The position numbers and the translations under genes are program-made. A stretch of DNA of 41,221 bases from a virus. Shown in pieces: positions 1 to 41,221 of this stretch (positions are counted from its first letter, which is position 1; each line of letters starts with the position of its first letter). Below the pieces are notes generated by a model. The model did not search any database and was not told the DNA's origin. It worked only from the letters and a program-made list of their open reading frames with translations. The DNA is taken from positions 1 through 41,221 of the IMG/VR virus record IMGVR_UViG_3300042934_000171. One strand, given 5' to 3'.

Positions 1-127
1 GAGGCACTGCCGTCAACCTAGTACCTAGTGACAGTCCGCAGGATATCTATAGAAGTGTAGCTGAGAAAGTCAATGTGCTCCTTGAGAAGGATGCTAAGAA
101 AGGCACGATGGATGAGGAAGCGGAGAC
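1..127. repeat. Exact terminal overlap (1-127 = 41095-41221), indicating a circularly closed assembly
   Basis: Direct comparison of the first and last lines of the window. The 127 nt are identical, and the offset of 41,094 is a multiple of 3, so the RNAP frame is preserved. Confidence 0.95.
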
Positions 128-923
128 AACAAAAGGAGAGCCATACTTGAAGCTAGGTACAAAGACCTTGGCCCAACAATGGCTCCTCTATGGGGTCAAT
201 CGCAAGGTTACCAAGCGATGTGTTATGACCTTCGCTTATGGGTCAAAAGAGTACGGATTCAAAGGGCAAATCCTTGAGGATGTCATCAAGAAAGCCAAGA
301 ATGAACACAGGGGCGATATGTTTGTAAAACCTGTACAAGCTGCAGCGTACCTCGCCAAGTTGATCTGGAAGGTCATCCAGGAGGTCGTTGTCAAGGCAGT
401 AGAAGGCATGAACTGGCTTCAGAAGATGGCCCGGATGGTCTGCAAGGATGGAAATGTGGTTACCTGGGTGACTCCTTTAGGTCTTCCTATTCAGCAGGCC
501 TATATGGAAAGCAATATGGAGGTCTTCAGGTTGCGCTTTGGTGGGTCCATAAAGAGACTCTACTCATCTAAACCGAGCGGCAACATTGATAAGATCGCTC
601 AGGTTAACGGTATCGCTCCTAATTTTATCCATAGCTTGGATGCCTCACACCTTCAGCTCACAGTCCTTGAGGCATACGATAGAGGGATTCAACACTTCGC
701 TATGATACATGATAGTTTTGGGTCTCCTGTGGCCCAAGCTCAAGAGATGTTCCAGACAGTCCGCTATACCTTCCATAAGATGTACACGGAGAATAATGTC
801 CTGGAGAACTTCGCAAGAGATATGGATGCCTTTATCGATCCTAATGCAAGCCTTCCGGTTATCCCTGCTTGCGGAAGACTGAATCTTGAAACTGTACTGA
901 ATAGTCCGTATATGTTTGCCTAA
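1..923 (+). CDS. T7-like single-subunit DNA-directed RNA polymerase, C-terminal part (continues from 39411-41221)
   Basis: The open frame runs from base 3 in the same phase as 39411. Motifs present: TFAYGS, NFIHSLDASH, IHDSFG (motif C) and a C-terminal YMFA that resembles the T7 FAFA foot. Confidence 0.97.
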   Translation, partial: GTAVNLVPSDSPQDIYRSVAEKVNVLLEKDAKKGTMDEEAETTKGEPYLKLGTKTLAQQWLLYGVNRKVTKRCVMTFAYGSKEYGFKGQILEDVIKKAKNEHRGDMFVKPVQAAAYLAKLIWKVIQEVVVKAVEGMNWLQKMARMVCKDGNVVTWVTPLGLPIQQAYMESNMEVFRLRFGGSIKRLYSSKPSGNIDKIAQVNGIAPNFIHSLDASHLQLTVLEAYDRGIQHFAMIHDSFGSPVAQAQEMFQTVRYTFHKMYTENNVLENFARDMDAFIDPNASLPVIPACGRLNLETVLNSPYMFA

Positions 924-943
924 TGAAAGGAGAGGGAATTGTA

Positions 944-1240
944 ATGATTAAACCACAACTAACAGCCGATGATGTCTTAAAGGAACATGAAAATAAAGTT
1001 GAACAGATATTATCTATAATAGATCGTAAGATACGTATAGCGGAAAGGTTCTATGATAAGAGGCCTGCAGCCCTTACACTAAGCGAAAACATAAGGCGGG
1101 TTCTCTATCATGAGTATCACAGAGGACTCCATCTCGGTTATTTTCAGAAGGACCTGAAAGACCATAGTGAGAGAATCTTTGGGATACCTATTATTTGGAC
1201 GTTTGATACTAATAAAATCGGCGTGGTATTCTATGACTGA
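944..1240 (+). CDS. hypothetical protein
   Basis: ORF 923-1240. The ATG at 944 is preferred because a GGAGAGGG SD lies 7-8 nt upstream. No recognisable motif. Confidence 0.6.
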   Translation: MIKPQLTADDVLKEHENKVEQILSIIDRKIRIAERFYDKRPAALTLSENIRRVLYHEYHRGLHLGYFQKDLKDHSERIFGIPIIWTFDTNKIGVVFYD

Positions 1241-1243
1241 GTG

Positions 1244-1262
1244 ATTGTGACACAATAGGAGG
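1244..1262 (+). promoter_or_regulatory. Candidate phage-RNAP promoter P1 (ATTGTGACACAATAGGAGG)
   Basis: One of six + strand intergenic copies of ATTGTGACAC(A/G)A. The 19-mer is identical to the copy at 39293. It sits after the RNAP block, as T7 phi1.1 does. Confidence 0.7.
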
Positions 1263-1264
1263 AA

Positions 1265-1299
1265 AGAGGCTCACCTGATATGTAGGTGGGTCTTTCTTT
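1265..1299 (+). terminator. Hairpin plus T-tract immediately downstream of P1 (early-terminator-like or 5' leader stem-loop)
   Basis: The arm ending GGCTCACCT (1265-1276) pairs with the arm starting AGGTGGGTCT (1284-1295), including G-U pairs. The loop is GATATGT and the stem runs into TTTCTTT. Confidence 0.5.
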
Positions 1300-1330
1300 A
1301 TGCTCAAATGAAAGGAGGTGAAATAGATAA

Positions 1331-1726
1331 GTGGCAAAAGCAACAACTAAAGAATTAGTGACAGGAGCCTCTACGGTATCCTCAATAGACCTCAAGGCAC
1401 CTGTAGATGTCCTTGTAGCTCCTCAGCGATTGGACCCGATTGTCAAGGAGGTCCGCACAGGGCAAACCATCGAGATTCCTGCAGGTGGTGCAGTTCTTTT
1501 CTCGCTGGCCCCTCGGATGCTCAAGACTCCTATCAGACTTGTAGAGAACTTCATCCTGAATCGGACAGCGGCTCCTGTGAAGCAGCCTATAGTTCTCCTT
1601 GTGGACAACACAGGGATGGATGGGTTCTTCCTAACTAAAGGCGCTGTGATCGCAACCGCTGTGATCCTTAATCCTGTGGATGGTCCTAAGGAGCCTCCTC
1701 AAGTAGTATCCCCGGCAGCCGAATAA
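1331..1726 (+). CDS. hypothetical protein
   Basis: GTG start 11 nt after an AAAGGAGGTG SD. 131 aa with no recognisable motif. Confidence 0.65.
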   Translation: MAKATTKELVTGASTVSSIDLKAPVDVLVAPQRLDPIVKEVRTGQTIEIPAGGAVLFSLAPRMLKTPIRLVENFILNRTAAPVKQPIVLLVDNTGMDGFFLTKGAVIATAVILNPVDGPKEPPQVVSPAAE

Positions 1727-1753
1727 ATTATTACATTGAAAGGAGATTAATCT

Positions 1754-2374
1754 TTGAACGACAGATTTACAACTCCAGTAGGGGTTATGTCATGGGCACA
1801 CCTCAGAACTCAAGAGGAATACAAAGGGAAGCCGACAGGCCGCCACAGTATCACCATGAAGTTCCCACTGGAAGTAACCCAAGAAATCCTGAAGCAATTA
1901 GAGGGTGTCTATAATGAAATCAAAAAGTATGCCCCATGCTTCAAAGGAGCCAAGCCCGCCAAAGGGTCTAAGCCTAACTTTGGAACTAAACTAGATCAAG
2001 ATGGGGACATCGTATTCAAGTTTAGCACGCGAGCGGAAGGCAAGAACCCTAAAACCGGGGAGACCTGGAAGAAGACCATTCCGGTATTTGATGTCAATGG
2101 TAAGCACCTTGAGGTGAACATTGGGAATGGCTCCACAGGTAAAGTCTCATATGAGATTGGTCCTAAGTTTGTTGATGGGACTAAATACGGTCTTAATCTC
2201 TATCTGATTGCAGCCCAGGTGCTAAACCTCGTGGAATATACTCCAGGCACTGTCAGCGCAGAAGCCTTTGGGTTCGATGTGGCTGAAGGTGGTTTCCCTG
2301 GTGAAGAAGAGAACCCCTTTGATGATCCAGAGAATGAATTTGCAAGTCCGGGAGATGTAAGCGAAGACTTCTAA
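1754..2374 (+). CDS. gp2.5-like single-stranded DNA-binding protein
   Basis: It occupies the position between RNAP and endonuclease I. Size is about 200 aa. The acidic C-terminal tail ends in Phe (PGDVSEDF), as in T7 gp2.5. TTG start follows an AAAGGAGA SD. Confidence 0.75.
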   Translation: MNDRFTTPVGVMSWAHLRTQEEYKGKPTGRHSITMKFPLEVTQEILKQLEGVYNEIKKYAPCFKGAKPAKGSKPNFGTKLDQDGDIVFKFSTRAEGKNPKTGETWKKTIPVFDVNGKHLEVNIGNGSTGKVSYEIGPKFVDGTKYGLNLYLIAAQVLNLVEYTPGTVSAEAFGFDVAEGGFPGEEENPFDDPENEFASPGDVSEDF

Positions 2375-2377
2375 AGT

Positions 2378-2839
2378 ATGGCACTAAGAACTTTCAGCCG
2401 CACCGGAGGGTGGACAGATCATAACCCTGTAGCCTTCCGAAGTGGCCTAGAGGAGAGCATAGCTAAAAAGCTACTAACCCAAGGGGTCCCCATTGTTTTT
2501 GAGCAGTATACCATTAAGTATGTGATTCCCGCCTCTAACCATGTTTATACACCGGACTTGATTCTTCCTAATGGAATCATTATAGAGGCAAAAGGGCTTT
2601 TCGAGGTGGATGACCGCAAGAAGCATCTATTGGTGAAAGAGCAGTATCCACAGCTCGATATCAGGTTTGTTTTCAGCAATCCCAAGCAGAAAATTTATAA
2701 AGGCAGCAAGACCACTTATGCTATGTGGTGTACTCAACACGGCTTCAAGTTTGCTGCTAAGTTTGTGCCTGAGGATTGGCTCAAGGAGTCTCGCAAGATC
2801 ACTCAAGGTCTCGTAGAGAAGAAAAGGAAAGGAGACTAA
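2378..2839 (+). CDS. Endonuclease I (T7 gp3-like Holliday junction resolvase)
   Basis: YTPDLILPNGIIIEAKGLFEVDDRKKHLLVKEQYPQLDIRFVFS is nearly colinear with the remembered T7 endonuclease I core (YTPDF..PNG...E.KG....DRKK). Confidence 0.92.
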   Translation: MALRTFSRTGGWTDHNPVAFRSGLEESIAKKLLTQGVPIVFEQYTIKYVIPASNHVYTPDLILPNGIIIEAKGLFEVDDRKKHLLVKEQYPQLDIRFVFSNPKQKIYKGSKTTYAMWCTQHGFKFAAKFVPEDWLKESRKITQGLVEKKRKGD

Positions 2840-2842
2840 TAG

Positions 2843-3184
2843 GTCATCGTATCATTCAGACAACGCAATCAAACAGACTATGTATGTCTCCGCTGCGAGG
2901 AGACCAAGGGTGCATCCCAAGATACCCTATGGAGAGCCGCTCGGAGAAGTGGGGAGCTTGATGTTCCCTTTCATTTCATCGTGCAGAAGACCGGAATAGT
3001 GGAAAACGGAAGGCCACTTGAGGCTATCGCGGGGCATAAGTACCCGCACAATGACACCACTCTATATGTCCTGGTCGATGCTGAAAACCATAACGCAATC
3101 ACAGATGCTCAAAGGAAAGCCATAGCGGACCTCTTGAGAAGCATTGAAGCGCATTTCCCGAAGGTTCAAATTGTGAAAGTCTAA
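2843..3184 (+). CDS. T7 gp3.5 (amidase_2 / T7 lysozyme)-like protein, apparently catalytically degenerate and C-terminally short; start codon unresolved
   Basis: The frame is open from 2843, directly after the endonuclease I TAATAG double stop and in the same phase. LDVPFHFIVQKTGIVENGRPLEAIAGH aligns with remembered T7 LDVGYHFIIKRDGTVEAGRDEMAVGSH. The first canonical start is GTG 2981, which lies downstream of that motif. Confidence 0.55.
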   Translation, partial: VIVSFRQRNQTDYVCLRCEETKGASQDTLWRAARRSGELDVPFHFIVQKTGIVENGRPLEAIAGHKYPHNDTTLYVLVDAENHNAITDAQRKAIADLLRSIEAHFPKVQIVKV

Positions 3185-3207
3185 GGGAGTAAAGCAGGGA
3201 GAATCCT

Positions 3208-4893
3208 GTGAATCGTGAAGAGTCGGAAATCATTGAGAGGCATCTACCTTGCCCGGAGTGTGGAAGCTCTGATGCACTAGCCACATATAGTGATGGGCAT
3301 ACCTACTGCTTCTCATGTAAGAAAGTCCGCAGTGGAAGCGGCATACCTTCATCAATAGAGAGAGGATCTCGCATGGCTAAAACTTCTGCACCACTTTCGC
3401 AGGACCTCCTTGTCCTTGGACCTTTGCCAGCCCGAGGGATCATGCAGGCAACTTGCGAAAAATACAGCTACTATAAGGCAACCTATAGCGGGAAGCCTGT
3501 TCAAGTCGCGTGTTATACAAACTCAGCTAATGAAGTGTTATTTCAAAAGATTAGAGGCAAAGACAAAGACTTCTTCAGCCTCGGGAAAACCCACAAGGTA
3601 TTCTATGGGCAACACTTATATAACTCCGGGAAGAAGCTAATAGTTACCGAAGGTGAAATTGACTGCCTAACGGTATCTCAGCTCCAAGACAATAAGTGGC
3701 CTGTGGTATCCCTGCCTTTTGGTGCAGGGTCTGCCGCTGAGACCTTTAAGGAAAACCTGGATTGGCTTGAAGGTTTTGAAGAGGTCATCACCATGTTTGA
3801 TATGGACAAGGCCGGGGAAGAGGCCAGAAAGTCTGTAGAAGGCTTACTCTCTCCAGGTAAACTCTACCACGCCACCTTGCCTCTCAAGGACCCTAATGAG
3901 TGTCTTGTGAAAGGCCAAGGGGAGGCCGTGAAGAAAGCCATATGGAATGCCAAGCAGTACAAGCCGGGAGGCATTGTCAATGGGGCAGACCTATGGGATC
4001 GCCTTAATGACCACAAAAAGAACACCCATGAGATTCCTTGGCCTTGGCCTGGGATTCCCCTTCAGAACCTAACCCGAGGAATCCGTAAAGGTGAGATGAT
4101 TATGCTCACAGCGGGAACCGGGATAGGGAAGTCTACGGTATTCCGAGAGATGGCCTACTGGATGGGTGTCAAATTAGACCCTCCTATGAAAATAGGCATG
4201 GTCTTCCTGGAGGAACAAAATGAAGAAACAGGTTTAGCTCTAATGTCGCTCCATGAGAACAAGCGTTTGCACCTTGAGTGGGAATCTATCTCAGCGGAGG
4301 AGCGCAGAAAGTCCTTTGAGGAGACCTTAGGAACCGGAAGATTCGTCTTCTATGACCACTTTGGGTCTATCGATGGGGAAAGCCTATTAAACCGAATACG
4401 CTACATGGTCACGGCTGAGGGCTGTGACTTTATCTTTTTAGACCATGTGTCAATCGCTATTAGCGGTCTCGCTACTAACAACGAACGGAAAGACATTGAT
4501 GTGCTCATGACTAACCTTGCCTCGCTTATACAGGAGACAGGTTGTGGCATGGGCATTATTTGTCATCTCAAGAAAACCGAAGGACAGAAGAAGTCCTTTG
4601 AGCAAGGCGCTCAGATATCCCTGGATGACCTCCGGGGTTCAGGGACCCTTAAGCAAATTCCCAATACGATCGTGGCAGGTGAGAGGGATCAACAGACTGA
4701 GGATGATCGAGCTAAGAATCTATTTGCTATCAGGCTCCTGAAGTGTCGATTTACCGGGAAGACCGGACCCGCAGGCTACTTATGGTTTAATGAGGAAACC
4801 GGAAGGCTTGATCTTATTGACGATAAGGACGCTTTCTTAGGGACTCTTGAGGTTTCCTCTAATGGAGACCTAGGTGTTCCTTCAGAGTTCTAA
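3208..4893 (+). CDS. Bifunctional primase-helicase (T7 gp4-like)
   Basis: Zn ribbon CPECGS..CFSC, TOPRIM VTEGEIDCLTVSQ, Walker A LTAGTGIGKST, Walker B FIFLDHVS, and a C-terminal Phe. GTG start follows an AGGGAGAA SD. Confidence 0.95.
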   Translation: MNREESEIIERHLPCPECGSSDALATYSDGHTYCFSCKKVRSGSGIPSSIERGSRMAKTSAPLSQDLLVLGPLPARGIMQATCEKYSYYKATYSGKPVQVACYTNSANEVLFQKIRGKDKDFFSLGKTHKVFYGQHLYNSGKKLIVTEGEIDCLTVSQLQDNKWPVVSLPFGAGSAAETFKENLDWLEGFEEVITMFDMDKAGEEARKSVEGLLSPGKLYHATLPLKDPNECLVKGQGEAVKKAIWNAKQYKPGGIVNGADLWDRLNDHKKNTHEIPWPWPGIPLQNLTRGIRKGEMIMLTAGTGIGKSTVFREMAYWMGVKLDPPMKIGMVFLEEQNEETGLALMSLHENKRLHLEWESISAEERRKSFEETLGTGRFVFYDHFGSIDGESLLNRIRYMVTAEGCDFIFLDHVSIAISGLATNNERKDIDVLMTNLASLIQETGCGMGIICHLKKTEGQKKSFEQGAQISLDDLRGSGTLKQIPNTIVAGERDQQTEDDRAKNLFAIRLLKCRFTGKTGPAGYLWFNEETGRLDLIDDKDAFLGTLEVSSNGDLGVPSEF

Positions 4894-4919
4894 TTAAAGT
4901 GTAAAGGGAGAGGAAGTAA

Positions 4920-5033
4920 GTGGGAAAGAAACTTCGTTTTGATATTAATGGTGTCTATCTGGACTCTGTAGAGGTTCCTGATGAGGAGCCAAAAGGAGAT
5001 CCTAAGGAATCCCAGGAGGTGACTCAAGCATGA
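4920..5033 (+). CDS. small hypothetical protein (37 aa)
   Basis: GTG start after a GGGAGAGGAAG SD. The stop overlaps the next start (ATGA coupling). Too short to appear in the ORF track. Confidence 0.35.
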   Translation: MGKKLRFDINGVYLDSVEVPDEEPKGDPKESQEVTQA

Positions 5034-34552: not shown

Positions 34553-34573
34553 ATAAGCACTTCATAAGCACTT
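34553..34573 (+). repeat. ATAAGCACTT-C-ATAAGCACTT (candidate integrase arm-type sites, right)
   Basis: Two exact 10-mers separated by 1 nt. The pair overlaps the int stop codon. Confidence 0.6.
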
Positions 34574-35732
34574 AAGACTTCTCCTTAATCACCAATTTAT
34601 CTCCTATAAAGGAAGCAGCATCTCGGTCCCTCTTAGGGATCTTATGTGCATACGTTGTGATTACAGTCTTAGGGTCATCCCCAATTCGATCCGCAACCAT
34701 CGCCACATCAAACCCATTAGCTAACAGATGAGATACATGAGTATGCCTAAGGTTATGAGGACTCATCTTCGTAGTGATGCCTGCCTTCTCTAGCATCTCC
34801 TTAAAGCATTTACCGAGGGTTGAGAAGTGCATAGGCTTGTTGTCTTTAGTACCAAACACAAGGTTATCCTCAGGATCTCCAGGCTTCTGAAGGTCTTTCT
34901 TAATGATCGCTAGGACCTCAGGCTCCACAGCGAAAGACCTACAGGAGTTATCGGTCTTCGGAGTGTCGAACAGATGTTTTCCTCGGATCTCCACAACATT
35001 CTCTTTGACATTTATCACATTAGCTGCGAAATCAATATTGTTCCACTTGAGACCCAATAGTTCACCTCTTCGCATCCCTGTAGCGAGTGCAAGGAGGACC
35101 AAGTGGTATATCTGCTTGTATTGTCTTGGGTCTTTCTTTTGATTCCTCTCTTGGAAAGCCTGGAGGAGTCTTGTCATCTCTTCCTCAGATAATATAGACT
35201 TCTCGGTCTTCCTTCGGGTGATCGTTATGGCATTCGAGGTGGGATTACTTCCAATGATGCCCTCCGATATCGCAGCCTCTAAGACACTATGTATGATTGA
35301 CTTGTGTTGAATTAAGGTATTGGAAGCTACTTCCGCTTTAGTTTTTTCCATGATATAATCATTGATAATACCTGTGGTAATCTTCTGAATTCTATAGTCC
35401 TTGAAAAAGGGTAGAATGTGTCGAGTAAGAGCATCCTCATAAGTTACATATGACCTCAGTTTGATTGCAGACCCTTTCTTGATCTCTAGCCATCTTTTGG
35501 CATAAGTCTCGAAGGTGATTGCATTGGGACCTGTTAAGGTTCCCTTGAGCTTATCTGCCTTGAATTGATTGAGAGCTAGGACAACCTCTGTCTTTGACCC
35601 TGTGATTGACTTTCGGACTTGCTTACCATTCTGATAACCGATTGTGATTTGAGCCTTGTACTTTCCATTGGGTAACTTCTGGATAGACCCATCGCCTTTA
35701 GGTCTTCTTGTGGCCTTCTTAGGGTCTGCCAT
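34572..35732 (-). CDS. int: Tyrosine recombinase / phage integrase
   Basis: C-terminal catalytic HNLRHTH...TYAH. N-terminal arm-binding type GDGSIQKLPNGKYKAQITIG. Start trimmed to ATG 35732, which follows AAGGAG by 9 nt. The upstream 47 codons of the tracked ORF have no support. Confidence 0.92.
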   Translation of the reverse strand: MADPKKATRRPKGDGSIQKLPNGKYKAQITIGYQNGKQVRKSITGSKTEVVLALNQFKADKLKGTLTGPNAITFETYAKRWLEIKKGSAIKLRSYVTYEDALTRHILPFFKDYRIQKITTGIINDYIMEKTKAEVASNTLIQHKSIIHSVLEAAISEGIIGSNPTSNAITITRRKTEKSILSEEEMTRLLQAFQERNQKKDPRQYKQIYHLVLLALATGMRRGELLGLKWNNIDFAANVINVKENVVEIRGKHLFDTPKTDNSCRSFAVEPEVLAIIKKDLQKPGDPEDNLVFGTKDNKPMHFSTLGKCFKEMLEKAGITTKMSPHNLRHTHVSHLLANGFDVAMVADRIGDDPKTVITTYAHKIPKRDRDAASFIGDKLVIKEKS

Positions 35733-35880
35733 GTAATCACGCTCCTTGTGAATCCTTTTGATACAAACCATAACACAGTGCTTAAGAAATAGCAAGGAGG
35801 TCCCAAGGGAAATTTTGGGCCAAAAATTCGTGACCATCCCTTCACTGCGTTCGCCCCGCGCGATTCCCCCCATAGGCCAC

Positions 35881-36445: not shown

Positions 36446-36564
36446 GAAGATGAAGGGAGCAGGGCAGCTATATGGAGACAATAGTTATCAGTATAGTCGG
36501 TACGGTATTAGTAGGAATGTTCTGGAGTTTGGTAACGAGTAGGTAAATAACTAAGAACACAAAT

Positions 36565-36620
36565 AAGGCCCTCCTTAAGGAGTCCACACGGATTCCCTAA
36601 GGAGGGCCTTATTTTTTTTT
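36565..36620. terminator. Strong bidirectional-type terminator between the moron genes (+) and the repressor (-)
   Basis: AAGGCCCTCCTTAAGG pairs with CCCTAAGGAGGGCCTT (at least 13 bp), followed by T9 on + and preceded by an A/T-rich run that serves the - strand. Confidence 0.85.
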
Positions 36621-36639
36621 GTCTCAAAGCAGTTGTTGA

Positions 36640-36843
36640 CTATTTGGTCTTATGCATCCATTCGATCTTATAGCCTAGAACCTCTGCGATCTCTAAGGCT
36701 TCTCTATAGCGGAGCGTGTCATTCTGTAGTTTCTTATGAAGGTTTTGCGGTGATTGTCCCAAGAGTTCCGCTAATTCTGTGACGTTCTTATTCTCCTGAG
36801 CTAATATCACGTTAATTGTTGTCTTGGTATTCAATGGGTTCAC
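36640..36843 (-). CDS. XRE/CI-type HTH repressor
   Basis: NVTELAELLGQSPQNLHKKLQ is a classic HTH_3 pattern. The gene is divergent from a strong + strand promoter. The start is GTG 36843 or, more plausibly, TTG 36834, which follows AAAGGA by 10 nt. Confidence 0.8.
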   Translation of the reverse strand: MNPLNTKTTINVILAQENKNVTELAELLGQSPQNLHKKLQNDTLRYREALEIAEVLGYKIEWMHKTK

Positions 36844-36930: not shown

Positions 36931-36959
36931 TTGACACCTGGGCTAACCTGTGCTAGTAT
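36931..36959 (+). promoter_or_regulatory. Near-consensus sigma70-type early promoter (TTGACA-N17-TAGTAT)
   Basis: TTGACA at 36931-36 and TAGTAT at 36954-59, with exactly 17-nt spacing. It points into the early operon. Confidence 0.75.
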
Positions 36960-37163: not shown

Positions 37164-37239
37164 GTCGAAACCTAAGGGTCTCCCTAAGAGGCCCTGACGG
37201 TCTCCTGGAGATAGCCTACCAGGACTGATGAGATAGGCT
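37164..37239 (+). ncRNA. Type II hammerhead self-cleaving ribozyme candidate, HHR-1 (predicted cleavage 37202|37203)
   Basis: In order: GUC, GAA, stem III (ACC...GGU enclosing GGGUCUC/GAGGCCC), C17, stem I (UCCUGG/CCAGGA), CUGAUGA, GAU. The tail AGGCU is complementary to AGCCU in loop I. Confidence 0.8.
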
Positions 37240-37256
37240 TAAGGAGGTTAGAGGTA

Positions 37257-37433
37257 ATGCATAAGAAACACAAAGGCTGGCTAATAGTCTCTAAGATCGA
37301 CAAGGAAACAGGGATGGAGTTCTTCTACTGTTACACACCGGATGAACTAGAGTACCCTGCGGCCCTTAGGAGCTACGAATGGGAGGCTTGCAGCCTTCAG
37401 GAAGCCCTAGACTTTATCAATAGTTGTAGATAA
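37257..37433 (+). CDS. early small protein (58 aa)
   Basis: ATG lies 8 nt after an AAGGAGGT SD that abuts the 3' end of the ribozyme. Confidence 0.6.
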   Translation: MHKKHKGWLIVSKIDKETGMEFFYCYTPDELEYPAALRSYEWEACSLQEALDFINSCR

Positions 37434-37450
37434 AAGGAGGTAGTGAACAA

Positions 37451-37936
37451 ATGAAACTATCTAAAGTCATCAACAGAGGAACTGAAATTCTATTAGTCAA
37501 GGCGTACCTATCGGACCTCAAAGGAAACTCTCAGCCGTACTTCAGCATCACCGGGGAAATTTGGGCGTATAGTCAGTCCTTAGGAAGAAAGAAAGGCAGC
37601 GACTGTATTACAGGTGGATGTATCCATGAGGAGATACTCAAGGCATTCCCTAAGCTCTCAGACCTAGTAGCTCTTCACCTCTCAGGAATGGACGGACAAC
37701 CTATGCACGCCTTGGAAAATGGATGGTATTGGTATGGAGGGACCAAGTGGCAGGAGTATCACAGGAAGAACCTTGCAGCACACCTGAGAATCACTGAGGA
37801 TCAAGCGGATGCTCTACACACTCTCCAGTTAGATAAAGTGGCGTTCGCTAAATACATAGATGAGCAGAAACCTCGATGGTCCCTAGAAGCTGCTCAGGTC
37901 ATTGACAAGTATCACCTTGAGATTATCAAAAGGTAG
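37451..37936 (+). CDS. early hypothetical protein (161 aa)
   Basis: ATG follows an AAAAGGAGGT SD. No motif that I can name. Confidence 0.7.
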   Translation: MKLSKVINRGTEILLVKAYLSDLKGNSQPYFSITGEIWAYSQSLGRKKGSDCITGGCIHEEILKAFPKLSDLVALHLSGMDGQPMHALENGWYWYGGTKWQEYHRKNLAAHLRITEDQADALHTLQLDKVAFAKYIDEQKPRWSLEAAQVIDKYHLEIIKR

Positions 37937-38021
37937 TGTCTAGCAGGGAGGTCCTGAGGGATTCCTTCAGGGCTTCAATGGTGGACATTAAAGAATAAAC
38001 CACATAAGGAGGACAAGAGCA

Positions 38022-38408
38022 ATGAAACACCGTCAGTATACCTTCACACTGAAGACTAAAGGAAGCCGTCAAGACCGTGAAATGACCGCACAGGTAGCCT
38101 TTTCCCCAGAGACGAACATGAGGACCCTGCTACAATTCACGGAGAAGCTGCAAGAGGTTTGGAAGGAAGCCATGAAAGCAACCAAGCGCGGCGATTATAT
38201 GGAGCTTACGATCTCCCGCACTGTAAACTCCTGGGACCCGCAAGAGGTTGCAAGAACTTGGAAACAGGAGGCCTTTGACTACTGGACCTTTGAGGGATAC
38301 AACGAGGACCTAGAAGGAATCTATCTGGCTCCAGACACGAAGTATACCGCAGCCGAATGCGACCTTTATCTGACTAAAAACATTTTAGAAAGTTTGGAGG
38401 GAATCTAG
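38022..38408 (+). CDS. early hypothetical protein (128 aa)
   Basis: ATG follows a TAAGGAGGA SD. The C-terminal half is acidic and aromatic. Confidence 0.7.
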   Translation: MKHRQYTFTLKTKGSRQDREMTAQVAFSPETNMRTLLQFTEKLQEVWKEAMKATKRGDYMELTISRTVNSWDPQEVARTWKQEAFDYWTFEGYNEDLEGIYLAPDTKYTAAECDLYLTKNILESLEGI

Positions 38409-38409
38409 A

Positions 38410-38481
38410 ATGACCCTCAAGGAACGCCTTTGCATCCTCTTAGTACTCACAGCCAGCCAGAAGCCCTCAGGTAATCACTAG
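38410..38481 (+). CDS. 23-codon mini-ORF MTLKERLCILLVLTASQKPSGNH (paralogue of 39228-39293)
   Basis: GGAGGGAA SD 8 nt upstream. The first roughly 45 nt are nearly identical to the second copy. Confidence 0.45.
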   Translation: MTLKERLCILLVLTASQKPSGNH

Positions 38482-38590
38482 GCCCACCTCAACACGCCAG
38501 AAGGCTGACTAAGGCTAGGTCAACCATTAGGAGCCCTCGGTCAGCCTTTGCGACAATCGAACGGATGTTCTATATTAAGGAGGAATTGAA

Positions 38591-38866
38591 ATGTTAATTA
38601 AAGGTAGTGAAATGAATTTTAAGACTCAACAAGAGGCCCTAAATAGATTTGTCCATAGATATACAAAGGATCATAAACCTGCTTGGGCAAGTCAACCAAT
38701 GCCGAATGGGGCTTCATACCCAGTTCAACATAACAGCGATAAGGAATGGTTGGAGCATACTTACTTCCACGTTACCGAAACAGGTGAACTATCGCGAAGA
38801 CATTCCTTTTGTGAATCCTTTTCAACTTGGCCTGATAATCCCGAATTAAGGAGACAGAAACATTAA
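38591..38866 (+). CDS. early hypothetical protein (91 aa)
   Basis: ATG follows a TAAGGAGGAA SD. Confidence 0.65.
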   Translation: MLIKGSEMNFKTQQEALNRFVHRYTKDHKPAWASQPMPNGASYPVQHNSDKEWLEHTYFHVTETGELSRRHSFCESFSTWPDNPELRRQKH

Positions 38867-38879
38867 TCTATATGAACAA

Positions 38880-38956
38880 GTCGAAACCTTCTGGACCTCT
38901 TTTGAGGCCCTGGAGGTATTCCGAGGGATAGCCTCCCGGAACTGATGAGACAGGCT
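38880..38956 (+). ncRNA. Type II hammerhead self-cleaving ribozyme candidate, HHR-2 (predicted cleavage 38918|38919)
   Basis: In order: GUC, GAA, stem III (ACCUUC/GGAGGU enclosing GGACCUC/GAGGCCC), A17, stem I (UUCCG/CGGAA), CUGAUGA, GAC. The tail AGGCU is complementary to AGCCU in loop I. Confidence 0.8.
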
Positions 38957-38973
38957 GAAGGAGGTCAAGAGGG

Positions 38974-39120
38974 ATGACTAGATATCAAATCATAGAGCAC
39001 ACCACAGGCCGCATTATGGGAGTCTACAGGGACCATAAGAGGGCCAGAAGGGCTGCTGATGCGTTGGACCTTAAGTACGGCAAAATCAATTATTACATTA
39101 AACCTATTGCAAGCGCCTAG
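38974..39120 (+). CDS. early small basic protein (48 aa)
   Basis: ATG lies 8 nt after a GAAGGAGGT SD that abuts the 3' end of HHR-2. Confidence 0.55.
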   Translation: MTRYQIIEHTTGRIMGVYRDHKRARRAADALDLKYGKINYYIKPIASA

Positions 39121-39227: not shown

Positions 39228-39293
39228 ATGACCCTCAAGGAAAACCTTTGCATTCTCTTGGCTCTCATCTGTACCACTCAAGGCAAAACTTAA
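39228..39293 (+). CDS. 21-codon mini-ORF MTLKENLCILLALICTTQGKT (leader-peptide-like)
   Basis: AAGGAGGTG SD 7 nt upstream. The stop TAA overlaps the first base of promoter motif P4. Confidence 0.45.
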   Translation: MTLKENLCILLALICTTQGKT

Positions 39294-39410: not shown

Positions 39411-41221
39411 ATGGTGAATACCCTTTCGGCTACCTACGGTAAACTCTATGAGGCCCAATTAGCTATCGAAAAGAAGTACAAGCAAGGTGCCTCTGATCGC
39501 CTCGCGGCTATGTTTGAAAAGTGTGAGAAGGAAGGAAGGGCCTCCTCGGTATCCTTAGGGCAAAAACTCCTGGATCATCAATTTAAGACCGTAAAGGAGA
39601 ACATTACACTCCTCGTGGATAAACTCTTGGCACCTAAAGCAGGTCAAAAGGCAAATTATACCTATATCATTGTGGAACTGGCAGGACTTTACGAAGGCAA
39701 TCGCGAAAGGCTCCTCGATATGCTGACCTTCATTCCTTTCAGTGCTCTCCTGAGTGCAGCCCTTCAGAATCGAGCGAATGCGGGGTTTGTGTCTGCCACT
39801 CTCAGTGCTCTTTCACATATCATAGGGGCTGAGATACAAGAGGAGGCCACTGCAGACGTATTCCTTAAATCCCTTGAGGATAATATAGAAGGTAAGGTCC
39901 TGGACGGTATCAAGAAGCGCAAGGATCGTCACTATAAAACCGCCTTCCTAGACAAGACCATGAAAGGCGAAGGATTCTCAAAACTATCTTGGGATTCTGT
40001 CTCAAGAGCTTCCTTAGGTGCCAAGCTCCTCGAACTCTCCATAGAAGGCAGTGGCTATTTTGAATTAGTACACGCTAAAGGGCCTAAAGGTGATGCAGTG
40101 CTAGAGATACGGCCTACTCAATGGCTAGTAGAGGCATGGAAGGATAATACTGCTGCAGCGGTCCTTAGGGCGTACCGGGCCTGTCCTACGGTTATTCCTC
40201 CTGCCCCTTGGGAAACTGTCTTCGAAGGTGGCTACTATGGGGACCTCAGAGGAAGACAGCCTATGTTACGCTCTGAAGCCTTCAGGCAATGGCAGGGACC
40301 TTCTAATGTATACAATAAAGAATACTTGGAGAAGATATCTCAACTCGACCTCAAGGAAGTCCGAACAGCCCTTGACCACATCCAGAGGACACCTTGGGTC
40401 ATCAATAGGGAGACCTTGGAGGTTGTCCAAGCTATTATAAACCGGGGCGGCGATTTTGCAGGGATAGCGAGAATCGATGACTCACCTAGACTTCCTGAGT
40501 TGACTGGAGACTTCACTGAGGAAGACCTAAAGAAACACAAAAAGAAGCTCGCTCAGTGGCACGCAGACGAACACATTAGGACATCTAAAGCTCTTAGGTG
40601 CCTATCGATCCTAAAGGTGGCTGAGGAGTTTTCTGAATTTGATAAAATTTACTTCCCGATGAACTGTGATTTTCGAGGACGCTGCTATCCTATTCCTAGC
40701 TTCAGTCCTCAAGGTGATGATATTACCAAGGGCCTGCTACTCTTTGCGGACCCTCCAGAATGTCACAGTATGGTCGATATCGAATGGCTCATGGTGCATG
40801 GGGCCAACCTTGCAGGAGTCGATAAGGTTTCCTTTGAAGACCGTAGGCAATGGGTCAAAGATCATGAGGAGCAAATCCTGAGGTCGGCTCAAGACCCTCT
40901 TGGGTTCACATGGTGGGCAACCCTTGATGACAATTCCATCCAATTCCTAGCGTTCTGCTTTGAGTGGACAAAGTGGAAGCAATGGGAGAAGGAGCATGGG
41001 ACACCTGAAGGATTCAAAACCGGGATACCTGTGGCCTTCGATGGGACATGTTCAGGCCTCCAGCACTTCTCAGCAATCCTGAGGGATACCGTGGGAGGCA
41101 CTGCCGTCAACCTAGTACCTAGTGACAGTCCGCAGGATATCTATAGAAGTGTAGCTGAGAAAGTCAATGTGCTCCTTGAGAAGGATGCTAAGAAAGGCAC
41201 GATGGATGAGGAAGCGGAGAC
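39411..41221 (+). CDS. T7-like single-subunit RNA polymerase, N-terminal part (runs off the window and continues at 128-923; 868 codons in total)
   Basis: The frame, translated by hand, is open from ATG 39411 to the window end. YFPMNCDFRGRCYPIPSFSPQGDDITKGLL and AFDGTCSGLQHFSAILRD match the T7 RNAP palm motifs. The ORF is absent from the track because it has no in-window stop. Confidence 0.96.
   Translation, partial: MVNTLSATYGKLYEAQLAIEKKYKQGASDRLAAMFEKCEKEGRASSVSLGQKLLDHQFKTVKENITLLVDKLLAPKAGQKANYTYIIVELAGLYEGNRERLLDMLTFIPFSALLSAALQNRANAGFVSATLSALSHIIGAEIQEEATADVFLKSLEDNIEGKVLDGIKKRKDRHYKTAFLDKTMKGEGFSKLSWDSVSRASLGAKLLELSIEGSGYFELVHAKGPKGDAVLEIRPTQWLVEAWKDNTAAAVLRAYRACPTVIPPAPWETVFEGGYYGDLRGRQPMLRSEAFRQWQGPSNVYNKEYLEKISQLDLKEVRTALDHIQRTPWVINRETLEVVQAIINRGGDFAGIARIDDSPRLPELTGDFTEEDLKKHKKKLAQWHADEHIRTSKALRCLSILKVAEEFSEFDKIYFPMNCDFRGRCYPIPSFSPQGDDITKGLLLFADPPECHSMVDIEWLMVHGANLAGVDKVSFEDRRQWVKDHEEQILRSAQDPLGFTWWATLDDNSIQFLAFCFEWTKWKQWEKEHGTPEGFKTGIPVAFDGTCSGLQHFSAILRDTVGGTAVNLVPSDSPQDIYRSVAEKVNVLLEKDAKKGTMDEEAE
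41095..41221. repeat. Second copy of the 127-bp terminal overlap
   Basis: Identical to 1-127. Confidence 0.95.

Follow-up and report, generated by a model that had tools for sequence, protein, structure and literature searches.

The window, i.e., the whole stretch of viral DNA analyzed (41,221 nt; IMG/VR record IMGVR_UViG_3300042934_000171), has ends that overlap exactly over 127 nt (1-127 and 41095-41221), and its assembly is therefore circular, with a length of about 41,094 bp. The gene for a T7-like RNA polymerase of the single-subunit kind runs on through the junction, with the genes for the DNA polymerase and the large terminase downstream of it, and a tyrosine integrase gene and an HTH repressor-like gene are located on the minus strand (Table 1). 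The identity of this RNA polymerase to the enzymes of isolated Autographiviridae does not exceed 35%, and near-identity and short blastn searches of cultured phages gave no match. Two hammerhead elements, HHR-1 and HHR-2, lie between the integrase/repressor and RNA polymerase genes, on the same strand (+) as all of the ORFs flanking them. HHR-1 is placed after the first 48-aa ORF of the early operon, and HHR-2 after a block of four ORFs plus a mini-ORF, 455 nt before the start of the RNA polymerase gene. The promoter match listed in Table 1 is likely the start of the early rightward operon holding both ribozymes. Neither family matches nor relatives were found for the 91-aa ORF upstream of HHR-2, and the 48-aa ORF downstream gave weak matches to DUF7336 and phrog_6742.

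Two other features of this region were recorded. A stable hairpin followed by U9 was detected at 36561-36623 (MFE -42 kcal/mol, z -7.35), with a sub-threshold match to Rfam rli56 and with compensatory changes at the conserved site of a related contig (L109, 2473-2571); this hairpin probably serves as an intrinsic terminator acting in both directions, set between the + strand ORFs upstream and the repressor gene on the minus strand. Additionally, two paralogous mini-ORFs, both under 30 aa, MTLKERLCILLVLTASQKPSGNH (38410-38481) and MTLKENLCILLALICTTQGKT (39228-39293), share their first ~35 nt, and the second of them has a strong Shine-Dalgarno (SD) sequence.

Table 1. Coordinates of HHR-2, of its parts and of the surrounding features in the window.
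Feature	Position	Strand	Remarks
Tyrosine integrase gene	34572-35873	-	
HTH repressor-like gene	36640-36843	-	
Sigma-70-like promoter match, TTGACA-17-TAGTAT with TG	36931-36959	+	Consensus match only; count not significant
HHR-1, paralogous first copy	37164-37239	+	Predicted cleavage between C37202 and U37203
91-aa ORF upstream of HHR-2	38591-38866	+	Stop codon ends 13 nt before the ribozyme
HHR-2, 77 nt	38880-38956	+	In the 107-nt gap between the 91-aa ORF (38591-38866) and the 48-aa ORF (38974-39120)
HHR-2 stem II, 5' strand GUC (G11.3 U11.2 C11.1)	38880-38882	+	Pairs with GAC 38949-51
HHR-2 core GAA (G12 A13 A14)	38883-38885	+	Read in the sequence; GAA invariant in 99/99 family matches
HHR-2 stem III hairpin, 32 nt	38886-38917	+	From A15.1 to U16.1; MFE fold
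HHR-2 H17 = A	38918	+	Position from covariance model alignments; predicted scissile bond A38918/U38919
HHR-2 stem I hairpin, UUCCG(A)GG / CCCGGAA	38919-38941	+	7 bp, bulged A38924; fold and covariance model alignments
HHR-2 pseudoknot, 5' strand AGCC in loop I	38930-38933	+	Pairs with GGCU 38953-56
HHR-2 core CUGAUGA (C3 U4 G5 A6 U7 G8 A9)	38942-38948	+	Read in the sequence
HHR-2 stem II, 3' strand GAC (G10.1 A10.2 C10.3)	38949-38951	+	Pairs with GUC 38880-82; stem II covaries in the family
HHR-2 3' tail AGGCU	38952-38956	+	Linker A38952 (conserved), then pseudoknot 3' strand GGCU 38953-56
Shine-Dalgarno AAGGAGG	38958-38964	+	Starts 2 nt past the HHR-2 tail
48-aa ORF downstream of HHR-2	38974-39120	+	ATG at 38974, 17 nt after the tail, the family mode
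T7-like single-subunit RNA polymerase gene	39411-41221, on through the circular junction to 923	+	Terminal overlap, translation, homology

HHR-2 reads GUC GAA ACCUUCUGGACCUCUUUUGAGGCCCUGGAGGU A UUCCGAGGGAUAGCCUCCCGGAA CUGAUGA GAC AGGCU, and its motifs, its core, the loop AGCCU (38930-34) and the flanking gap were all found where a first-pass annotation of this DNA had placed them. Two of the helices had to be redrawn. Stem I had been described as the 5-bp helix UUCCG/CGGAA; these pairs are present (U38919 being position 1.1 and A38941 position 2.1), but the helix continues beyond a bulged A with G38925-C38936 and G38926-C38935, giving 7 bp closed by the 8-nt loop I GAUAGCCU (38927-38934), a size typical of the family. 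The stem III base, ACCUUC 38886-91 / GGAGGU 38912-17, stood as described and starts with A38886 (A15.1) paired to U38917 (U16.1). By contrast, the distal helix GGACCUC/GAGGCCC holds an A38895/C38908 mismatch. The complete stem III is thus composed of a 6-bp base with one wobble pair (U38890-G38913), a 1x1 loop formed by U38892 and U38911, a distal helix of seven positions including the A/C mismatch, and a UUUU loop. The folding energy of HHR-2 alone was without significance compared with shuffles (z -1.3) and that of HHR-1 was likewise not distinctive (z -1.5), such thermodynamic scores being uninformative for RNAs this short.

The assignment of HHR-2 to the type II hammerheads was examined with the acceptance criteria of Perreault et al. 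(2011). The consensus core (C3 U4 G5 A6 N7 G8 A9, G12 A13 A14, A15.1, U16.1, and A, C, or U as H17) is complete, and the standard core-adjacent pairs are all present: G38949-C38882 (10.1-11.1), U38919-A38941 (1.1-2.1), and A38886-U38917 (15.1-16.1). Among the helices, stem I has 7 bp with one bulge, stem II has three perfect pairs, and stem III has two mismatches in 13 positions, but is long. Loops close stems I and III, and stem II holds the 5' and 3' ends, with the element order 11.x-GAA-stem III-H17-stem I-CUGAUGA-10.x of the type II permutation. Moreover, loop I forms a pseudoknot, for which at least 4 bp are expected in type II, with the nucleotides immediately 3' of stem II. The type II identity proposed in the first-pass annotation agrees in this way with the published sequence and structure criteria. 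The same applies to the cleavage nucleotide, which had been placed at A38918 in a GUA triplet held to be permitted: A is allowed by the H17 rule, though found in only 3 of 99 members of the subfamily (C in 95, U in 1).

The Rfam model RF02276 (Hammerhead_II) aligned with HHR-2 over its full length (model positions 1-66 to 38879-38959) with 35.3 bits and E-values of 6.7e-6 in a local search and 1.2e-3 in the whole window. This score is 1.7 bits short of the gathering cut-off of 37 bits, which is an operational criterion rather than a defining feature; no match was returned in the Rfam gathering mode, and the E-value mode was needed to reveal it. HHR-2 falls below the cut-off because of the insertion in stem III (16 nt, making the stem about twice its usual length) and a 1-nt register insert in stem II. 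HHR-1 is also under the gathering score, with 24.6 bits. A covariance model was then built from 90 relatives in viral contigs, with both window copies and the two relatives nearest to them left out. It scored 57.8 bits for HHR-2 and 57.0 bits for HHR-1, and the next best site in the 41-kb window, with filters off, reached 11.4 bits; no third or degenerate hammerhead copy was found in the window by the covariance models under these conditions. The composite AGCCU-N-CUGAUGA-N-AGGCU was observed twice in the window (37213-37239 and 38930-38956) and in none of 100 shuffles.

The comparison of both copies revealed that the core, the loop, and the tail are shared, as had been claimed for the core nucleotides and the pseudoknot partners, and that the helices differ in a compensatory manner. 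In stem I, the pair 1.2-2.2 is C-G in HHR-1 and U-A in HHR-2, and the pair 1.4-2.4 is U-A in HHR-1 and C-G in HHR-2. The pair 10.3-11.3 is U-G in HHR-1 and C-G in HHR-2, also in agreement with the earlier description. Stem III is built on a 3-bp base and an internal loop in HHR-1, and on a 6-bp base in HHR-2. The comparison of orthologous sites covers one contig, L050 (41.4 kb), whose RNA polymerase is 48% identical to that of the window. One hammerhead of L050 is 85% identical to HHR-2, with the same bulged A and with A-U, a third state, at 1.2-2.2, and a second copy (558-638) resembles HHR-1, but has U4 of the core changed to C.

The first-pass annotation had proposed aligning both copies with metagenomic relatives and scoring the covariation, and covariation was scored here on alignments of the family. 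After an earlier, too strict pattern that gave no matches in viral sequences, the pattern GTCGAAAC-N35-65-CTGATGAGAYAGGCT matched 108 viral contigs, with 119 matches over those loci plus the window (84 unique sequences). It was also detected in 13 bacterial genomes, mostly Bacillota, plus Desulfoluna and Brevundimonas. When the 84 unique sequences were aligned with MAFFT, 94.3% of the cells were paired, double-sided changes were observed at 10 pairs, and the covariation score was 0.516, versus 0.124 in shuffles and <0.1 with slid partners. A model-based search of 100 of these loci yielded 176 copies, many of them with different stem II and tail sequences. In the wider set of 98 distinct copies, 95.1% of the cells were paired, double-sided changes occurred in 17 of the 20 pairs (13 of the 15 in the nested helices), and the covariation score rose to 0.696, compared with 0.156 for shuffles and at most 0.10 for slid controls. 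Since the covariation set was seeded with a pattern derived from the window, the 23 nt fixed in it are not independent evidence.

The changes were distributed over all of the helices. In the family, all six modeled pairs of stem I covary, as do five of the six modeled pairs of stem III and two pairs of stem II (GC/AU at 11.3-10.3, and UA/GC/CG at 11.2-10.2). Double-sided changes were also observed at all four pairs of the pseudoknot, the outer one appearing as AU, GC, CG, GU, or UA, with the loop/tail combinations AGCC/GGCU, CGCC/GGCG, GACC/GGUC, UGCC/GGCA, GGCC/GGCC, GGUC/GACC, and AGGC/GCCU. This support is not built in, because the pseudoknot lies outside the covariance model. The five-pair AGGCU/AGCCU interaction proposed earlier was accordingly retained for the four pairs 38930-33/38953-56 and abandoned for the fifth, U38934-A38952, whose equivalent is paired in 37 members and unpaired in 56; position A38952 is conserved whatever its would-be partner. 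Judging from this covariation, the helices and the tertiary contact of the family are under selection, and the pattern of a conserved core with covarying helices put forward in the first-pass annotation was borne out both by the two copies and by their relatives. HHR-2 is confirmed by sequence, structure, and covariation as a genuine type II hammerhead.

Some features of the family set HHR-2 in context. The core reads CUGAUGA in 71 of the 99 family matches, CUGAAGA in 12, CUGACGA in 12, and CCGAUGA in 4. The last variant (U4 to C) recurs in otherwise well-formed copies (L050 558-638; L061 4179-4277, 5201-5266, and 5738-5825), which may be attenuated, conditional, or dead ribozymes. The stem III region has a median of 18 nt and a mode of 16 nt in the family, compared with 32 nt in HHR-2 and 28–32 nt in all of the T7-like loci. 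Inserts of up to 94 nt were observed in stem III of the L061 copies.

The position of the element between genes was quantified in the 94 family copies with enough flanking sequence. An upstream ORF of at least 40 codons ends between -45 and +3 nt of G11.3 in 88 of these copies, and in 38 of the 88 the stop codon is UAG, its G being G11.3 itself. An SD-like motif with a start codon (ORF of at least 30 codons) follows within 45 nt of the tail in 82 of the 94, with a mode of 17–21 nt. Random positions in the same loci gave 28% for the ORF end and 13% for the SD plus start. In both window copies, the SD and the ATG are found 2 nt and 17 nt after GGCU, respectively. The upstream spacing differs between them: HHR-1 starts 5 nt after its stop codon, and not 14 nt as had been stated. 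The HHR-2 subfamily is therefore common in viral contigs and is positioned almost to the nucleotide between a stop codon and the ribosome-binding site that follows.

The same layout, i.e., a divergent integrase, a hammerhead, at least one gene, another hammerhead, more genes and finally the RNA polymerase gene, recurs in L050, in L071, and in the group formed by L014, L076, and L099, whose RNA polymerases are only 42–48% identical to that of the window. The closest relative by RNA polymerase, L109 (69% amino acid identity), showed neither a hammerhead nor any other Rfam ribozyme at E ≤1 within the 5 kb (1-5000) that precede its RNA polymerase gene, so the element is dispensable for this type of phage. 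No homologues of the early ORFs of the window were found in L109 either and, since both ribozymes and early ORFs are missing there, the early region must turn over quickly, along with its ribozymes. When viral and metagenome contigs were searched for close relatives by means of the RNA polymerase gene, only L109 and distant ones were returned, none of them with a hammerhead, and the relatives of the 161-aa ORF had no confident hammerhead nearby, the sole match being marginal (23.2 bits, L128).

Taking these results together, HHR-2 is read as an active type II hammerhead, transcribed within an early rightward polycistronic phage mRNA, with a probability of roughly 85%; its self-cleavage is what we infer from the features described above. 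The weak points of the element are the bulged A of stem I, the two internal mismatches of stem III, and an A17 that is rare in the subfamily (3/99). These points, the sub-threshold Rfam score, and the core-mutant (U4C) copies in related contigs (e.g., L050:558-638) would also suit a catalytically weak or dead sequence derived from a hammerhead, a decaying paralogue of HHR-1 kept as a hairpin pair for stabilizing or spacing the mRNA. We consider this unlikely, since every invariant core position, all three core-adjacent pairs, and the 4-bp pseudoknot are intact, and the bulged-A form of stem I is found again in L050, L100, and L006, flanked by compensatory changes, which argues for selection. 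The triplet itself is no obstacle, GUA being permitted and well cleaved under the NUH rule of hammerheads.

An anti-SD-like CCUCC (38932-36), which spans loop I and the 3' strand of stem I, is complementary to the SD GGAGG (38960-64) and could in principle make HHR-2 a conditional ribozyme and translational switch with two exclusive folds, one with an active ribozyme and a free SD and the other with an inactive ribozyme and a masked SD. The MFE fold of the 3' product does pair GCCUCCCGG with the SD region, but it is no better than those of shuffled sequences (z +0.28). Moreover, HHR-1 has CCUAC at this place, which makes the pairing impossible, an A or a G replaces the needed U/C in about half of the family, and the CCUCC is already accounted for by the pseudoknot AGCC and the closing G-C pairs. 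The switch was rejected, mainly on the fold score and its absence from HHR-1, as quite improbable, slightly more so than a decayed ribozyme.

Cleavage by two ribozymes on the same strand would give one fragment carrying both a 5'-OH and a 2',3'-cyclic phosphate, and the pair might therefore excise the 1.7-kb segment between HHR-1 and HHR-2 for circularization or splicing by a host RtcB-type ligase, a possibility raised by Perreault et al. (PMC3088659). Those authors sought spliced or circular products and detected none (PMC3088659), the copy number (1 to about 12) and the spacing vary widely in the family, and each ribozyme is positioned relative to a stop codon and an SD instead of to a partner; we regard excision as very improbable. 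Finally, the possibility that CUGAUGA and GAAA lie near hairpins by chance, for which only the unremarkable frequency of CUGAUGA alone could be invoked (17 copies in the window versus 9.5 expected), is excluded by the composite motif (0 in 100 shuffles), by the covariance model (57.8 versus 11.4 bits), and by hundreds of covarying relatives. The first-pass annotation had also argued against a chance CUGAUGA.

An active hammerhead at this position would act on an operon running from the promoter near 36.95 kb through the small ORFs to the T7-like RNA polymerase gene. After transcription, stems III and I would fold and the 3-bp stem II would close the core, with the pairing of the loop I AGCC and the 3' tail GGCU holding stems I and II parallel. 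The RNA would then cut itself between A38918 and U38919. The upstream product would terminate in the long stem III hairpin (32 nt; fold z -2.3) with a 2',3'-cyclic phosphate, and the downstream product would open with a 5'-OH placed right at the structure formed by stem I and the pseudoknot, shortly before the SD. Being joined by just the 3 bp of stem II, both products would part. Because of the strand order, type II is the sole permutation in which both new ends are capped by hairpins. Cuts at both HHR-1 and HHR-2 would free a segment of 1,716 nt (37203-38918) with four ORFs of 58–161 aa and a 23-codon mini-ORF, and the cistrons that follow would gain a defined, context-independent 5' end.

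HHR-2 thus probably cuts an early multi-gene mRNA into separate hairpin-capped pieces. As for mRNA stability and translation, the consequences that we infer from the arrangement would amount to uncoupling both of them between neighboring early cistrons. The long stem III of the T7-like loci (28–32 nt) fits a role as a 3'-end stabilizer.

This reading is in line with what is known of related elements. Type II hammerheads with a pseudoknot between loop I and the 3' tail cleave faster than 1 per minute at 0.5 mM Mg2+ and require the pseudoknot, and clustered prophage hammerheads cleave both in vitro and in E. coli (PMC3088659). HHR-2 shares with the elements of Perreault et al. (PMC3088659; RF02276, clan CL00010) the circular permutation with stems I and III capped and stem II open, the core, the short 3-bp stem II, and the pseudoknot, with its 4 bp or more, that links loop I to the nucleotides just after stem II, as well as a location in a phage or prophage close to an integrase, where several copies flank single genes or short gene blocks. 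It differs from them in a stem III of about twice the usual length, in A instead of C as H17, and in its genome, which is that of an uncultured integrase-bearing T7-like phage rather than a RefSeq-annotated bacterial prophage. In Desulfovibrio vulgaris, three type II hammerheads with phage-like genes nearby were found to be active in vivo by cyPhyRNA-seq (PMC8782182). They resemble HHR-2 in their type II architecture, the 5' fragment measuring about 30 nt and the 3' fragment 39 nt; hypothetical, phage-like and HTH genes adjoin them, and two copies lie close together, as here (PMC8782182). The likeness drawn here is one of architecture and context, between elements validated experimentally and a predicted one.

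Already in 2011 the class itself was described, together with its permutation and pseudoknot, its link to integrases and prophages, and the way in which several copies flank genes; it was also proposed then that long phage transcripts are processed to operon- or gene-length mRNAs (PMC3088659). HHR-2 reveals neither a new class nor a new mechanism, and it is a well supported but ordinary member of its class. What is new here is modest: a member with an unusually long stem III and A17 in a complete uncultured temperate T7-like genome, and a quantified placement from stop codon to SD. A well-documented hammerhead pair is thereby added, in the complete circular genome of a divergent temperate T7-like phage. 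Both this placement and the fact that hammerheads recur ahead of T7-like RNA polymerase genes in lineages with only 42–48% identity in that protein support the old idea that phage hammerheads may split polycistronic mRNAs into units that are separately stabilized and translated.

The position of HHR-2 also recalls phage T7 itself, in whose early polycistronic mRNA RNase III processing sites were reportedly described by Dunn and Studier. These sites occupy the same niche, lying between cistrons of the early operon, in the neighborhood of the RNA polymerase gene, in a genome of the T7 type, and RNase III processing leaves a hairpin at the new 3' end, as the predicted cleavage of HHR-2 would do. 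The chemistry and the host dependence differ, since in T7 a host protein endonuclease acts on a long duplex, whereas HHR-2 is predicted to cleave itself. The likeness would be a functional analogy only. On this basis it is tentatively suggested, with the odds somewhat against it, that in integrase-bearing T7-like phages the type II hammerheads are the counterpart, independent of the host, of the sites at which RNase III processes the early mRNA of T7, the permutation having been selected for the hairpins on both ends and the doubled stem III being an adaptation as a 3'-end stabilizer. Nothing specific was found in the literature on hammerheads as analogues of RNase III sites or on phage hammerhead arrays. 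If the suggestion held, it would provide hammerheads of bacteria and phages with a concrete, testable function.

A second parallel is provided by synthetic insulators of the RiboJ type, engineered from a type III satellite-RNA hammerhead, in which a hammerhead just upstream of the ribosome-binding site removes variable upstream RNA and leaves a defined, hairpin-capped 5' UTR. HHR-2 lies likewise just upstream of a ribosome-binding site, and is natural, type II and pseudoknotted. The sequences of HHR-1 and HHR-2 would be ready-made natural insulator parts for functional tests.

Hammerheads of this subfamily were also observed in larger arrays. VIPR systems contain, next to a Vipr gene, vrRNA arrays interspersed with hammerhead ribozymes (bioRxiv 10.64898/2026.04.26.720920). 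An array in Marinithermofilum abyssi (L114 7053-7911, NZ_BMHQ01000020.1), with seven hammerheads of the same subfamily (AUCGAAAC...CUGAUGAGAUAGGCU) in 860 nt at a period of about 130 nt, matches this description (bioRxiv 10.64898/2026.04.26.720920), and the hammerheads separate there the units of a multi-unit transcript. Its spacers are G/U-rich guide-like RNAs of about 65 nt with a GGY/NN pattern and a 5-nt GGN-NN periodicity (e.g., GGUAA GGUAC GGAAC GGCUC), whereas the spacers of the window are protein-coding cistrons. When GGY/NN periodic arrays (nine 5-mers, at least six starting with GG) were sought on both strands of the window, none was found, compared with 20 in L114. A link of the window to vrRNA arrays was rejected on these grounds, its ribozymes being followed by an SD and ORFs. 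Long type II arrays with about 11–12 copies, one every 300–400 nt, were detected in the viral contigs L006 (3615-6708) and L061 (3163-8611), and further ones in L101, L010, L048, and L046. They contain approximately one copy per small gene, far above the triple arrangements tested in 2011.
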